Source: Candidatus Marinacidobacterales bacterium (GTDB taxonomy: Bacteria > Acidobacteriota > Vicinamibacteria > Marinacidobacterales > DATDRI01). Taken from it: DNA of 64,000 nucleotides. The stretch spans positions 1,472,001 to 1,536,000 of the forward strand of contig OZ244742.1 in NCBI GenBank assembly GCA_965219415.1, given 5' to 3'. The notes beneath the pieces are model-generated. The model ran no database searches, was not told the DNA's origin, and worked only from the letters and a program-made list of their open reading frames with translations. The position numbers and the translations under genes are program-made. Position 1 is the stretch's first letter, and each line of letters opens with the position of its first letter. Of this stretch, positions 45,832-50,368 are shown piece by piece.

Positions 45832-47463
45832 ATGATGGACTCGGCAAAAAAACTGGATTACCGGGAGCTCGCTTCCTACAAGCCCCTTTTTCTCGACTAC
45901 GTTTATCGTTTCGATCGCTTGGCGCCGTATTTCTCCGGCGACCCTGGTGATCCCGACGCGTGGCGTCGGGTAGCGAAGAAGGTCTCCGACTACCCGAGAC
46001 AACCCGAACGTGTCGCGAAAATGCTGCACCGACAAAACCGCAAGATGGGGGCCGACCCCGCGGTATCGAAAGCGCTCGACGCGCTCGCGAACGGCGCCTT
46101 GGCCATCGTGACTGGCCAGCAAGTAGGCCTCTTTGGGGGCCCTCTTTACAGCCTGTACAAGGCGCTTACCGCCGTTCAGCTTGCAAGAAAAATTAGCCCC
46201 ATGGTCGGCCGACCGGTGGTCGCCCTTTTCTGGATGGATGCCGACGATCACGACTTCGAAGAAATTAGCTCGGTGAATTTGATCGACCCATCGCAAGAAT
46301 TGCTCGCGCTGAGCTACCAACCGCCGGAGCTTCAAAAAGGTGCACCGGTCGGAGCTCTTCCCCTCGAGAGCTCCATCGAGGAACTGGTAGCGCGCGCCGG
46401 GGAGTGTCTCGGCCCGTCGGAGTTCAAGGAGGAAATCCTGGAGGCGCTGGGGGAAAGCTACGCGCCAGGAAGGACCCTCGCTGAGGCTTTCGGCAGTTGG
46501 CTGCTCCGCATGACCCGAGGAACCGGCCTGGCGGTCGTCGATCCCACCGCACCGTCACTCAAGTCCATGGCCGCTACGCTCTTTCAGCGTGAGACCTCTG
46601 ACAAGTCCGAGAGTACACGGCTCGTCGAAGAGACGACCCGCAAATTGGTATCCCAGGGCTACCACGCCCAAGCCGGCACCGCCGACCATCGGCTGAACGT
46701 GCTCTATTCCGATCCCGTTCGTTCCCACATCACCGTCGAAGACTCCGGCTTTCGTCTTTCCGACCATGGCTCCGCAATGAGCCCGGAGGAGCTTTCGAAG
46801 CTAGTCGACGAGTCACCAGAGCGTTTCAGCGCCAACGTCCTGCTGCGTCCGCTCGTTCAGGATCATCTGCTTCCCACGATTAGCTACGTGGGAGGGCCCA
46901 ACGAGTTGGCCTACCTCGCTCAGCTGGGTGCCGTCTACGACCACTTCGGGGTTCCCATGCCCCTGATCGTCCCGCGCTCCAGCATCACCGTTGTAGAGAA
47001 GGCAGCGGCAAAATTCTTGAGCCGCCATGGACTCAAGCTCTCGGACTTGCGCGCCAACGACGAATCGGTTTTGAACGATATCCTGAAAGACCTCGCGCCG
47101 CCGCAGCTAGACGAGGACCTTGCACGCGCCCGCACGTGCATCCAGGAAATCACGCAGACGTTGGAGAAAGATCTCGCCGCCGTCGATCCGACGCTAGCTT
47201 CGACCGCCAAGTCGACGCGTGGCAAGTTACTTCACCACCTCGGGGAGCTCGAAACCAAGAGCCGACGCGCGATCAAGAAAAAGAACGATACGCTGCGTCG
47301 CCAGTTCTTCTCCGCCCGAACCGCACTATTCCCGAATTTCGATATGCAGGAGCGACAGCTGTCGCCGGTTCAATATTTGGCCAAGTACGGCTGGCACTTC
47401 ACGGATATGGTGCGAGAGAGTATTGACATGGAGGAACCGGGGCACGTGTTGCTATTTCCTTAA
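45832..47463 (+). CDS. bshC: Bacillithiol biosynthesis cysteine-adding enzyme BshC
   Basis: VTGQQVGLFGGPLY..YKA, DHDFEE, SANVLLRP..QD..LP, GGPNELAY..Q, QER. Confidence 0.93.
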   Translation: MMDSAKKLDYRELASYKPLFLDYVYRFDRLAPYFSGDPGDPDAWRRVAKKVSDYPRQPERVAKMLHRQNRKMGADPAVSKALDALANGALAIVTGQQVGLFGGPLYSLYKALTAVQLARKISPMVGRPVVALFWMDADDHDFEEISSVNLIDPSQELLALSYQPPELQKGAPVGALPLESSIEELVARAGECLGPSEFKEEILEALGESYAPGRTLAEAFGSWLLRMTRGTGLAVVDPTAPSLKSMAATLFQRETSDKSESTRLVEETTRKLVSQGYHAQAGTADHRLNVLYSDPVRSHITVEDSGFRLSDHGSAMSPEELSKLVDESPERFSANVLLRPLVQDHLLPTISYVGGPNELAYLAQLGAVYDHFGVPMPLIVPRSSITVVEKAAAKFLSRHGLKLSDLRANDESVLNDILKDLAPPQLDEDLARARTCIQEITQTLEKDLAAVDPTLASTAKSTRGKLLHHLGELETKSRRAIKKKNDTLRRQFFSARTALFPNFDMQERQLSPVQYLAKYGWHFTDMVRESIDMEEPGHVLLFP

Positions 47464-47491
47464 TTAGAGGTCGGTCGCCTCCTCTCTCAGC

Positions 47492-47594
47492 TGCACTCTC
47501 ACTCTTCGTTCGGGCGCTCGCGCGCCGTCGGCAAGCGACTACGCGCGGGCTGAGGGCTCTGGCTCCCTCCCGGCGCTCGCTCTTCGCTCGCGCG
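47492..47594 (-). repeat. Dispersed ~95-100 bp intergenic repeat, copy B
   Basis: Reverse complement aligns at both ends with 12826-12917. Confidence 0.65.
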
Positions 47595-47771
47595 AAAAAC
47601 CATGGTTCCCTTACCCTGCATTCCGCCAACAATTCCTCCCGACCCGGCGGTGCTCACGCGCCGTTTGGCGAGGGCCCCCCGCCGAGACGCAGCGATCTTC
47701 TCTTGAATAAACGCCACGCCAGATGCAGCGGGACACTGCTTTCTTCTCCCTCGAGGCAACCTGACCCGAAA

Positions 47772-49160
47772 CTACCCTCCGGAAGCCTGGGGAGTGAGGG
47801 TGTATCCGAGAGCTTCGGCTGCCTTTTGTAAACCGTTGATGTGGTTTTGGCGAAAACGGTCTTCGAAGGCGCGTTCGCCGATATCGATGTAATCGTGGCC
47901 ATATTTGAGCATGCGGAAGACGAGCTGGGCGAGCTTGCGTGCTGTAGCAAAGACGGCGGTTTTGCCATCTTTACGGCGAGCAGTGCGGCGATAGTAAGCG
48001 CCTAGGGCGGTCTTGGAGCGGGAGAGAGATACAGCGGCCATACGTAAGGCACCGGCGATGCGATTGGAGCCGGTGCCGTTGCGGCGTTTGGAGAGTTGTT
48101 TACCGCCGGAGATAGGGCGACGTGGGGCGAGATGTAGCCATGAGACGAAGAATTTTTCGAAAGGGAAATCAGAGAGGTCGAATCCGATCTCGGTGAGGAC
48201 AATGGCGGCGGTGGTTGGACTGATTCCGTCGATCCTGGTGAGGTCGCATCCAGCAAAACGCCACAGCTCGTTGCGCAGTTCGCTCTCGCCCCGATGCTGC
48301 ATGTCGTATCGTTTTTGCGGATTTGGATGAGCTGGCACGTTGTGGTGTCTGCGTTGTGGCGGCTGGAGTTCGATGAGCACTTCAAGGATACGCTGGTCGA
48401 ACAGTTCGACTTCGGCTTGTAGCGCATCGTAGAGACGCAGAGCCGATGCGAGGTTGAAAAGATGCTCGTCACGCCAAGTGCCGGTAAGATGCTCGGCGAT
48501 CTCCTCTTCGCTCTTCTTGCAGCGTTGGTCACGAAATGCAGCCAGCTTTGACGGGTCACGCTCACCATCAACGATGGCGCGCACGATGAGCATGCCTGTG
48601 ACGCCGGTAATGTCGGTCACTGCACGATGGACCTGAACGTTCATTTGGTCCAGAGATTTCTGTATCCATTGAATAGCTCGACTACACTGCTCGATGAGGC
48701 TGCAACGCTGTCGGTGAAGCGAGCGTAGGCGGCAGATCGACTCACCAGGACGAAACGAGCCTCGCAACAGACCACAGCTGTGTAACAGCTGCAGCCACTG
48801 ACAGTCATGCATATCGGTTTTACGCCCGGGGACGTTTTTTAACTGTCGAGCATTTACCAGCACCACTTCAAGACCCCGCGATTCAAGCAACTCATAAATC
48901 GGAATCCAATAGACGTAGGTGCTTTCCATCGCAACCGATTCGACTCCTTGCTCGATGAGCCAATCCCCCATTTGATTCAAAGACGGTGTCGTTGGGGAAA
49001 ACACCCGCACGTTCACTTTACCGTCCGACAAGGCCGGCCCACATACCCAATGCTCACGACTGCCAATATCGATGCCTGCTACCTTCGACCTTGTCACCGG
49101 CAGCGATTGCGGCGACAGATTCTTCGACTTCCTACCACTCTTTTTCACGCGCTTGTGCAT
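47772..49160 (-). CDS. IS110 family DEDD transposase/recombinase
   Basis: GIDIG, AMESTYVYW, GRKTDMHD, catalytic-Ser ISGG, ATARKLA; GAGG RBS. Confidence 0.95.
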   Translation of the reverse strand: MHKRVKKSGRKSKNLSPQSLPVTRSKVAGIDIGSREHWVCGPALSDGKVNVRVFSPTTPSLNQMGDWLIEQGVESVAMESTYVYWIPIYELLESRGLEVVLVNARQLKNVPGRKTDMHDCQWLQLLHSCGLLRGSFRPGESICRLRSLHRQRCSLIEQCSRAIQWIQKSLDQMNVQVHRAVTDITGVTGMLIVRAIVDGERDPSKLAAFRDQRCKKSEEEIAEHLTGTWRDEHLFNLASALRLYDALQAEVELFDQRILEVLIELQPPQRRHHNVPAHPNPQKRYDMQHRGESELRNELWRFAGCDLTRIDGISPTTAAIVLTEIGFDLSDFPFEKFFVSWLHLAPRRPISGGKQLSKRRNGTGSNRIAGALRMAAVSLSRSKTALGAYYRRTARRKDGKTAVFATARKLAQLVFRMLKYGHDYIDIGERAFEDRFRQNHINGLQKAAEALGYTLTPQASGG

Positions 49161-49169
49161 CACTGACCT

Positions 49170-49365
49170 CACATGTATTTTTGTGAGTGAAGGCTCCGGC
49201 CCGAGATGGCGATTGTTAGGATTCTGACCCTGGGGAGTGCTTCCGTTCAAAGCCTCGCCAATGATAGGGAGCCGGATCGGACCCAAGCTCGTCCTGGGGC
49301 ATTAGTGCACCAGTGGTGCTACGGGGTTTAGCTGCCGGGGCCTTCACCGACAACCCTTTTATCAG
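49170..49365 (-). ncRNA. Putative IS110 bridge/seek RNA
   Basis: ~200-nt 5' non-coding end; 14-bp closing stem; internal stems; segments identical to the target and donor junctions. Confidence 0.6.
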
Positions 49366-49501
49366 CTCAGGTAGTTTCTCGCCTGATAGGGCCGGCCTCA
49401 GCCGGCGGCCTTGCTCGTCCGGACGAGGTTTTTCTCTGGGAGCTGCGGTACCCCGCTTCGCCTCTTTCGCGAGGCGCCGAGTACGGACCACCCGAAAAAG
49501 G

Positions 49502-49549
49502 CGGGATTATGCACTTGACAAATACGTATTTGTCAAGTGCATAATCCCG
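49502..49549. repeat. Perfect 48-bp palindrome
   Basis: CGGGATTATGCACTTGACAAATAC|GTATTTGTCAAGTGCATAATCCCG. Confidence 0.95.
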
Positions 49550-49562
49550 GAAAAAGGCGTCA

Positions 49563-49600
49563 AATATTCCTTGACATGAATATTCTGTTATGAGAATATA
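49563..49600 (+). promoter_or_regulatory. Promoter and tandem inverted-repeat operators of the ArsR-SRPBCC pair
   Basis: TTGACA 49571-49576; AATATTC-N8-GAATATT (49563-49584) and ATATTCT-N6-AGAATAT (49580-49599). Confidence 0.65.
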
Positions 49601-49605
49601 TCTGA

Positions 49606-49917
49606 ATGATCGAAACGTTCGTCGCGCTTGCCGAGCCTAACCGCTTGCGTATCATCGAGTTGTTGCGTGACGGACCACGCCCGGTGGGCGAAATCGGAGA
49701 CCGACTTCGCCTGCGCCAGCCGCAAACATCCAAGCATCTGCGAGTCTTGAAGAAAGCTGGACTCGTCGACGTGCGCCCCGACGCTCAGCGCCGGGTGTAC
49801 CAGCTGCGTGCTCAGCGGCTTCGCGAGCTCGACACGTGGCTGGATCCTTATCGGCAGTATTGGAGCGAAAGGCTCGACGCCCTGGAGAACATGCTTCGGA
49901 GTGAATCAGAGGAGTGA
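49606..49917 (+). CDS. ArsR/SmtB family regulator
   Basis: FVALAEPNRLRIIELL, QPQTSKHLRVLKKAGLV, WSERLDALE. Confidence 0.92.
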   Translation: MIETFVALAEPNRLRIIELLRDGPRPVGEIGDRLRLRQPQTSKHLRVLKKAGLVDVRPDAQRRVYQLRAQRLRELDTWLDPYRQYWSERLDALENMLRSESEE

Positions 49918-49921
49918 ACCT

Positions 49922-50368
49922 ATGAGCTCGACCGCACCAGCAACCAAGATAACGCGGACCATCAACGCCCCCGCCGCCAAAGTGTTCGAAGCGTGGACAG
50001 ACGCGGACCAGCTGAAACGTTGGCTCGCACCCCATCCGTACGAGGTGCGCGAAGCGGCCGTGGACGCGCGACCAGGCGGTCGTTACCGAGTCGTCGCGGC
50101 GATCGAAGGCGAAGAGCCCCACACGACGACGGGCAAGTACCTGGAACTAGAGCCGGGGAGCCGCCTCGTGAAGACTTGGTTCTACCAGGGCCCCCTCGGT
50201 GACGACGTAACGCCCTCGGTGGTCACCGTTGATTTTCGTGAGGTCGCTCCAGGAGTGACCGAGCTCACGCTGACTCATGCGGAGCTCCGCGATGACGCAG
50301 ATGCCAGCGAGGGGTGGACGCTCATCCTGGACCAACTCGTGGCACTCTTCAAGGGGACGGAGGAGTAA
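49922..50368 (+). CDS. SRPBCC/AHSA1 (START-like) domain protein
   Basis: GAGGAG RBS; APAAKVFEAWTD..LKRW, DARPGGRY, TELTLTH, EGW. Confidence 0.9.
   Translation: MSSTAPATKITRTINAPAAKVFEAWTDADQLKRWLAPHPYEVREAAVDARPGGRYRVVAAIEGEEPHTTTGKYLELEPGSRLVKTWFYQGPLGDDVTPSVVTVDFREVAPGVTELTLTHAELRDDADASEGWTLILDQLVALFKGTEE

Follow-up and report, generated by a model that had tools for sequence, protein, structure and literature searches.

The non-coding left end of an IS110-family insertion sequence, located upstream of the recombinase gene, raises two questions: whether it encodes an RNA that guides the recombinase, and which segments of such an RNA would read the target site and which would read the ends of the element itself. 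Bridge RNAs have been predicted in 85.7% of the catalogued IS110 elements (PMC11208160), and a bridge RNA in an IS110 left end is to be expected. In the window, i.e. the whole stretch of 64,000 nucleotides that has been analysed here, an original prediction had proposed an RNA of this kind, in which the octamer CCCTATCA reads the target and the heptamer GGGTCAG reads the donor. Both repeats are indeed present on the minus strand, CCCTATCA at 49262-49269 and 49384-49391, and GGGTCAG at 49224-49230 and 47761-47767.

By comparing the locus with its own copies and with related loci, we have observed the boundaries of the element, the fold of the RNA and the covariation of its loops with DNA, and we conclude that the stretch 49187-49347 of the minus strand, upstream of the recombinase ATG at 49160, is very probably the bridge RNA of a 1,653-bp IS110-family insertion sequence that is located at 47761-49413. 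The proposal of a recombinase guide RNA in the non-coding left end, with the target loop ahead of the donor loop, is supported by our analysis; the target guide is a different segment, GGACGAG, which the original prediction had missed. The coordinates of the features are collected in Table 1.

Table 1. Features of the IS110-family element of the window, of its flanks and of its RNA.
Feature	Position	Strand	Basis or remark
Whole IS110-family element	47761-49413	-	G001 empty site; nine left and nine right own-genome junctions
Left flank, five target nt plus AG core, GGACGAG	49414-49420	-	3' half of palindrome CTCGTCCGGACGAG (49414-49427)
First 10 nt of left end, CAAGGCCGCC	49404-49413	-	N4-GCCNCC kept across relatives
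GC-rich hairpin-forming inverted repeat of left end, CCGGC-TGAG-GCCGG	49391-49407	-	By eye
Internal left-end site CCCTATCA	49384-49391	-	Same-sense twin of donor-loop 5' strand
Left subterminal inverted repeat GAAACTACC	49370-49378	-	
P1, enclosing 14-bp stem	49334-49347 / 49187-49200	-	RNAalifold and explicit model
P2 stem	49324-49327 / 49281-49284	-	RNAalifold and explicit model
Target-loop 5' strand CGTAGCACCACT	49312-49323	-	No partner placed
P2a stem	49307-49311 / 49296-49300	-	RNAalifold and explicit model
Target guide GGACGAG, 3' strand of target loop	49288-49294	-	
P3 stem	49277-49280 / 49201-49204	-	RNAalifold and explicit model
Donor-loop 5' strand CCCTATCA (B5)	49262-49269	-	
P4 stem, GGCGAG with CTCCCC	49254-49259 / 49232-49237	-	Encloses hairpin P5
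P5 hairpin	49239-49254	-	Within P4 (P4-P5 unit 49232-49259)
Donor guide GGGTCAG, 3' strand of donor loop	49224-49230	-	
Recombinase gene, 462 aa	47772-49160	-	DEDD_Tnp_IS110 and Transposase_20 domains
Right subterminal inverted repeat GGTAGTTTC	47768-47776	-	
Right terminus, GGGTC plus AG core	47761-47767	-	Junction alignment, empty site

Boundaries of the element and its copies

Both ends of the element and its single AG core are fixed by an empty site that has been found in a genome of the same genus (G001). The unoccupied site, ...GCACCTCGTCCGGACGAG|GTTGCGTCGATGGAGCAGAAAGCAAC..., corresponds to the left flank and the right flank of the window joined with one AG (across the junction, it reads ...CCGGACGAG|GTTGCG...), while AG is present at both junctions of the occupied site; therefore, the element extends from 47761 to 49413, with an AG core and a length of 1,653 bp if the core is included once, at the right end. 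The nine left and nine right junctions of its own genome, where five full-length and about five partial near-identical copies occur, are consistent with these boundaries: all nine right ends finish at ...GTAGTTTCGGGTCA, followed by G in eight cases (GT in seven of them) and by A in one, and seven of the nine left ends start with CAAGGCCGCCGGC... directly after ...GACGAG, being alike up to 49413 and unrelated beyond it. The stretch 49384-49400 is common to all nine left ends. Across the related loci, the end pattern of 5 nt plus AG is found at 68 of 79 left ends and at 53 of 79 right ends, and in tandem copies the right end is joined directly to the N4-GCCNCC start. For the copy at C3:166509, the exact empty site could not be read, the intergenic regions of the relatives being too diverged.

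The letters of the GC hairpin at the left end differ between families and clades while its pairing persists, as judged by eye; in relatives, the outer bases of the left and right subterminal repeats also co-vary, by eye. Non-coding sequence at the right end amounts to 11 nt.

Several copies deviate from the complete form. In genome G000, which is that of the window, two otherwise complete copies (L004 at C3:617543 and L005 at C3:2136493) start with TGAGGCC in the loop of the left-end hairpin, without the first 13 nt of the left end; their flanks differ from the target guide, and one of the two adjoins an inverted fragment of the 3' end of a related element. Two other copies of G000 (C1:1979163-1980588 and C2:268027-269452; L007, L008, L012 and L013) have an identical internal deletion, equivalent to about 48999-49230 of the window, by which the donor guide, the 3' strand of stem P1 and the gene start are lost; they occupy different sites, where the flanks match in each case, a situation that points to mobilisation in trans. 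Solo pieces with a length of 60-130 nt, in which about 45 nt from the start of the left end are retained (L039-L046, from G001, G003, G008, G020 and G026), some of them together with a right-end-like GTTTC-N5-AG, look like miniature non-autonomous derivatives. In relatives, the miniature derivatives preserve about 45 nt at the outer side of the left end and the outermost 14-17 nt of the right end; three of the pieces (L042, L044 and L046) have in common a further conserved interior of about 100 nt, and in the derivative L043 the subterminal repeats have changed in a compensating manner and the flanks are like those of the window.

Two further repeats are located in or near the element. A perfect inverted repeat of 48 nt (49502-49549, a self-match on both strands) is found just upstream of a small regulator gene (49606-49917, plus strand), described as ArsR-like from its translation, and is possibly the operator of this gene. 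The 11-mer CACTCCCCAGG occurs at about 49229-49239, from the 3' strand of stem P4 into the donor guide, and again at about 47790-47800, in the last codons of the recombinase gene, about 30 nt before the right end; this duplication is probably due to chance, because relatives keep only CACTCCC there.

The recombinase and its relatives

The recombinase, whose start codon is located at 49158-49160, matches PF01548 (E 1.8e-21) and PF02371 (E 1.4e-13), i.e. it contains both the DEDD RuvC-like domain and the Tnp domain, and it scores 248 bits against the NCBIfam model NF033542, “IS110 family RNA-guided transposase” (cut-off 140). Its likeness to the proteins of solved structure is distant and lies mainly in the Tnp domain: ISCro4 is matched at E 1e-6 and IS621 at E 2.4e-9, the latter in the Tnp domain only, with 462 aa compared to the 328 residues of the solved IS621 chain.

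Diverged full-length copies occur within the same order at 87%, 77% and 73% DNA identity. A scan of species-representative genomes has revealed 79 related loci in many phyla, the relatives being found in Acidobacteriota, Myxococcota, Verrucomicrobiota, Gemmatimonadota and others, with proteins that are 41-66% identical to the recombinase of the window. The clade comprises at least 7,999 protein clusters at E <= 1e-20, and none of the 120 relatives listed has an informative protein name. Plasmid relatives from Pseudomonas, Enterobacter, Nostoc and Paraburkholderia (L145-L148; 46-48% protein identity) have, by eye, right ends that consist of GTTTC, 2-3 nt and AG, as well as a loop segment that matches, again by eye, the right end and the first bases of the right flank; these relatives suggest a wider superfamily with the same core.

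A conserved fold upstream of the recombinase gene

A profile of the leader of the window found a match ahead of the gene in 71 of the 82 related loci that were searched, the 11 unmatched loci being mostly 5'-cut or the most distant, and it also matched two of the four leaders of the plasmid relatives. Together with the window, the matches amount to 79 sequences, 55 of which are distinct; our fold alignment (A1) contains 51 of these 55, in 48 distinct rows, and leaves out L094, L113, L131 and L131b, which are 5'-truncated or aberrant.

RNAalifold and an explicit model of six stems agree on the fold, where stem P1 encloses two internal-loop modules, each of which comprises a closing stem, a distal stem-loop and, between them, a 5' strand of about 12 nt and a 3' strand. 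In the 48 distinct sequences, 92.6% of the cells of the six-stem model are paired, compared to 81.2% in shuffles, and compensatory changes, i.e. changes on both sides, occur in 27 of the 36 base pairs; none of 500 shuffles reaches any of the five fold measures, and sliding the partners of the stems lowers the pairing to 32-57%. G-U cells are frequent (e.g. 23 at columns 26/74), and therefore the strand of the RNA is that of the transposase gene. Within this conserved scaffold, two short stretches are hypervariable, both of them ending with AG and both located on 3' strands. The Rfam search of 47000-50000 gave no relevant match, the only hit being a chance-level snoRNA (E 6.9) located in another part of that region than the RNA.

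The enclosing stem of the original prediction, GTGAAGGCCCCGGC (49334-49347) with GCCGGAGCCTTCAC (49187-49200), which forms 13 of 14 pairs in the window, is real across the relatives: 84.1% of its cells are paired in the 48 distinct sequences, with changes on both sides in 13 of the 14 pairs. The two inner stems that had been proposed together with it are not supported. GCACC/GGTGC is paired in only 54.7% of the cells, and TGGCGA/TCGCCA, although paired in 84.7% of them, shows compensatory change in none of its six pairs and breaks in five sequences that change column 97; the alternative pairing GGYGAG/CUCCCC keeps those five as A-U.

The target guide and the insertion site

The 3' strand of the target loop, GGACGAG, is identical to the left flank together with the core. 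When one insertion is taken per distinct loop, the loop and the left flank are identical at 123 of 135 positions over 27 loops, with a perfect match in 17 of them; the shuffles give 49.0 +/- 5.8, and none of 5000 reaches 123. Among 53 distinct left junctions, the match is complete (5/5) in 28 and at least 4/5 in 43, the remaining ten being below 4/5, and the seven full-length left junctions of the own genome read GGACGAG in six cases and AGACGAG in one. The left flank is located outside the element, so that this identity does not come from co-inheritance. In individual relatives, the left flank and the loop have the same letters: GGGCAAG in L027, GGACTAG in L028, TGAGGAG in L112 and, within one and the same genome, GGCTAG in L099 and GGCCAG in L132. 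The covariation with insertion sites, which had been named as a check by the original prediction, is thus a property of GGACGAG, and none is found for CCCTATCA. The junction statistics exclude L073, L105, L131, L119 and L081, where the end pattern is ambiguous or the flank is cut, the right-flank tests additionally exclude L112, and no claim draws on locus L032 (genome G007).

In the clade of the window, the flank that is matched by the guide is the 3' half of the palindrome CTCGT-CCGG-ACGAG, which, together with a T-run, scores as terminator-like on the plus strand; three such palindromes are unoccupied in the own genome. In other clades, heptamer repeats or ends of related elements serve as targets, so that tandem arrays arise. 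Six copies of one genome (L066, L095, L123 and L126-L128) have GGGTCAG as their target guide, i.e. the right end of the window clade; two of them are located directly after the right ends of related elements (element-in-tandem), and four after right-end-like sequences.

For the 5' strand of the target loop, the search for a partner in the left and right flanks (60 nt, either sense) gave z values of -0.18, 0.82, -1.55 and 0.18, and the search in the leader, the right end and the rest of the RNA found none (best z 2.43). Similarly, a second guide, for the right flank, gave no clear signal in the column-by-position, partner or anchored scans of the related loci: the maximum of the column-by-position scan is z 3.9 over about 2000 tests, and the anchored scan gave a weak single diagonal (z 3.0 and 2.2).

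Two other accounts of the left end have to be weighed against this assignment. In the map of the original prediction, the element starts near 49384, the octamer at 49262-49269 is the target guide, its copy at 49384-49391 is the target flank plus core, and some 30 nt upstream of it belong to the host. The identity of the two octamers is real, their copies co-vary across relatives, and the upstream site is next to the left subterminal repeat, an arrangement that is roughly the mirror image of the right end; however, the nine left ends of the own genome have 49384-49400 in common and seven of them continue alike to 49413, the multi-copy families of other genomes all have the hairpin and the octamer within their common part, and the tandem copies join the right end straight to the N4-GCCNCC start. 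The upstream octamer is located inside the element and so is not a target flank, and its twin, as the 5' strand of the donor loop, corresponds to a site within the element itself. This map is already refuted by the empty site, where ...GGACGAG is joined directly to GTTGC..., and we give it practically no credence. The other account, that the conserved fold acts only as a 5' untranslated leader, controlling the translation or the stability of the recombinase without guiding the recognition of DNA, suits the location of the fold directly upstream of the start codon, as well as the structured inhibitory leader that has been described for ISPpu9 (PMC12288879), but it does not predict that a loop should equal the host flank, exactly at 28 and nearly at 43 of 53 junctions. 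The roles of leader and guide are not mutually exclusive, and we consider a leader with no guiding role highly improbable.

The donor guide and the proposed mechanism

The 3' strand of the donor loop, GGGTCAG, is identical to the last five bases of the element together with AG, and this donor match of the original prediction holds across the relatives, with 97 of 114 positions being identical over 19 loops; the shuffles give 61.6 +/- 4.4 and none of 5000 reaches 97, but they overstate this relation, as well as that of the handshake-like bases, because the RNA and its DNA partner are co-inherited within the element. As regards this one sequence, 755 of 5000 shuffles produce an octamer that occurs in both the 71-nt leader and the 161-nt core, so that the octamer repeat is not significant by itself, and the right-end heptamer occurs in 42 of 5000 shuffled cores, which is modestly significant; on the sequence evidence, the significance of the repeats comes only from the comparative data.

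The target guide is directly followed by CT (49286-49287), which is handshake-like: a comparison of the dinucleotide at this place with the one that opens the element gives identity at 42 of 64 positions, compared to 26.1 +/- 3.6 in the shuffles, with the overstatement mentioned above. No such agreement is seen between the right flank and the bases that follow the donor guide (18 of 64 positions, compared to 17.7 in the shuffles). In L027 (G008), the right end is GGGCAAG, equal to the target guide and the left flank of the same copy and not to its donor guide GGGTCAG, and a perfect 20-nt palindrome at its site is duplicated for 7 nt. A conserved right-donor guide, GGYG(AG)GC, which would pair with bases 5-10 of the left end in the window and in L027, has been considered and rejected: the same bases form the compensatory stem P4, and its variable position fits only partly, leaving it unproven.

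By analogy with the characterised members of the family, the RNA would be expressed, would bind the recombinase and would take part in recombination in the following way. The two internal-loop modules would be held together by the 14-bp stem P1; within the first loop, the 3'-strand segment GGACGAG would read five flank bases and the AG core of the insertion site, with the next one or two bases tending to be the same as those at the start of the element, as in a handshake, and within the second loop, the 3'-strand segment GGGTCAG would read the last five bases of the element and AG. The RNA-bound recombinase would then pair the guides with one strand of the target and of the excised-circle junction, and the strands would be exchanged at the shared AG, i.e. 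CT on the strand opposite the gene.

The octamer that is shared by the donor loop and the left end

The DNA copy of the octamer CCCTATCA is located 23-30 nt inside the element, as set by the empty site, after the GC hairpin (49391-49407) and 5-8 nt ahead of the left subterminal repeat. The comparison of the loop octamer with positions 19-31 of the left end, in the same sense, gives 293 of 320 identities over 40 element types, and none of 2000 shuffles (241.9 +/- 4.6) reaches this value, although the relation is overstated by the shuffles, given the joint inheritance of the two copies. Among 23 distinct pairs of twins, the loop departs from the consensus 40 times, with 30 of these departures being mirrored in the DNA site and only five leaving the site at the consensus; ATCCAACA, ATCAAACA, ACAGTTCA, ATCGTTCA and ATCAATCA are concordant twins, each of them occurring in both places, and two close relatives from one genome, L077 and L077b, show concordant differences between their twins. 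Since the two copies are alike in the same sense, the antisense strand of the left-end site is the only one with which the RNA could pair. This is a robust donor-side relation across the conserved GC hairpin, for which we have found no explanation. The order of the two segments of the donor loop does not fit a simple four-way junction on either strand. A complementary “anti” segment of the leader, which would pair by turns with one and the other of the two octamers, has been rejected (233 observed, compared to 231.6 +/- 2.7 in shuffles), and a UAUCAG/CUGAUA pairing that is seen by eye in the window is clade-specific.

It is possible, and we propose it tentatively, that the 5' strand of the donor loop, CCCUAUCA, is an extra guide that pairs with the opposite-gene strand at the site that is located 19-31 nt inside the left end. 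The paired site would be found just beyond the GC hairpin, next to the left subterminal repeat, and the recognition of the donor would be split across a DNA hairpin, as a donor-side counterpart of the target stem-loop gate of ISPpu10; alternatively, the left-end site may be an operator for self-regulation. The identity could also be the relic of a partial duplication, kept alike by co-inheritance and without a role in pairing: the likeness extends slightly past the octamer on both sides (CGG-octamer-GG in both places), the two copies are inherited together, and a mutation of the left-end inverted repeat of ISPpu9 did not stop the formation of circles in the published experiments (PMC12288879). 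This explanation is unlikely in our judgement: the departures of the loop are mirrored by the same base in 30 of 40 cases, the close relatives L077 and L077b differ concordantly within one genome, the miniature derivatives keep the left-end site, and drift would erase an identity of 8 nt among elements whose proteins are 41-66% identical.

Signals of expression

One metatranscriptome run contains a single contig of 156 nt that is 100% identical to 49205-49360, and nothing else of the 1.8-kb stretch. A second run contains relatives at 90-95% identity over 49189-49379, and runs X18 and X20 contain only parts of the gene or relatives at 90-95% identity. The exact contig is a weak hint of expression, given that contigs show neither ends nor strand and that carry-over of DNA could occur. 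The scan of 49100-49500 for a consensus promoter found nothing; TAnnAT-like boxes are seen by eye 7-12 nt upstream of P1.

Comparison with known systems

As far as the accessible parts of the published descriptions go, the element of the window has several properties in common with IS621: a recombinase with DEDD and Tnp domains (PMC11208160, PMC11208158), a guide RNA that is encoded ahead of the gene, in the non-coding end, a target loop followed by a donor loop, each arranged as stem, strand, stem-loop and strand (PMC11208158), guides that include the core, a 2-nt core that is present once in the empty site, and bases beside a 3'-strand guide that match the other DNA (handshake). Nevertheless, the architecture of the IS621 type, i.e. 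a CT core, guides on the 5' strands and no closing stem, is not the one that is found here. IS621 recombines at the dinucleotide CT (PMC11208158, PMC13626964), located on the gene strand as far as its strand can be inferred from the published description, whereas the core on the gene strand is AG in the window; its long left guides are located on 5' strands (A50-U58 and A123-C130), whereas the 7-nt guides that read the flank and the end of the window element are located on 3' strands; and its two consecutive stem-loops have no common closing stem (PMC11208158), whereas one 14-bp stem extends over both loops here, a difference that the original prediction had rightly pointed out. The window element also differs by its subterminal repeats of nine bp and by the single guide that has been found per loop.

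When viewed on the opposite-gene strand, the guides of the window are complementary to the core and to the bases that follow it, which is the place of the right-side guides of IS621, with their handshakes (RTG G77-G80 with 81-82, and RDG with 166-167). Since the guides occupy this place (3' strand, core and handshake), we infer that the loops are homologous to those of IS621 and that the cassette of RNA and recombinase is inverted relative to the recombination sites.

The ends of the element resemble those of ISPpu9 from Pseudomonas putida, a likeness that is drawn from the published description: AG is found at both ends on the gene strand, with the crossover at AG (PMC12288879), and a left box of about 43 bp with an inverted repeat is combined with a right box of about 16 bp (PMC12288879). 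The small non-autonomous A'/B' segments of ISPpu9, which have the same flanking boxes (PMC12288879), are paralleled by the miniature derivatives of the relatives. There is a palindrome at the target of both, located on the right flank in ISPpu9 (PMC12288879) and on the left flank here, and in the accessible part of that description the left-end box is not linked to a loop of a guide RNA (PMC12288879). As in ISPpu10 (bioRxiv 10.64898/2026.03.19.712850), the flank that is read by the guide is one half of a stem of 5 bp with a 4-nt loop, CTCGT-CCGG-ACGAG in the window; this likeness is limited to the clade of the window, other clades having the targets mentioned above, and the window family differs by the donor-side GC hairpin that is conserved in all clades. 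Long subterminal inverted repeats, of 9 bp here, are also known from the IS1111 group (PMC11208160), to which the window element does not conform: the guide RNA of that group is located in the right end, downstream of the gene (PMC11208160), whereas that of the window is located upstream, and the left repeat of the window differs in being 36-44 nt inside the end.

The family of the window may already be included in the bridge-RNA models of PMC11208160 and of a 2026 preprint that describes 86 models, many of them unlike IS621 (10.64898/2026.10.21.760802, Fig. S12). In the accessible parts of the literature that has been searched, neither the mirrored donor site nor the present placement of the guides was found, which does not prove that they are unpublished.

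Implications for the IS110 family

Bridge RNAs are under development as tools for programmable recombination, and their natural diversity sets the space for design. The layout that is described here differs from that of IS621 by its closing stem, its 7-nt guides on 3' strands, the AG on the gene strand, and a donor hairpin with a site that mirrors the loop; its corrected map also demonstrates that the boundaries of an element need to be fixed by empty sites before guides are assigned. If the 5' strand of the donor loop is indeed an extra guide, it would explain the role of the left-end box of about 43 bp in ISPpu9-like elements, as well as the retention of exactly the left-end module by the miniature derivatives, and should the mirrored site prove to be a genuine element of recognition, the conserved left-end box of ISPpu9 would likewise gain a function and the specificity for the donor would have a second layer.
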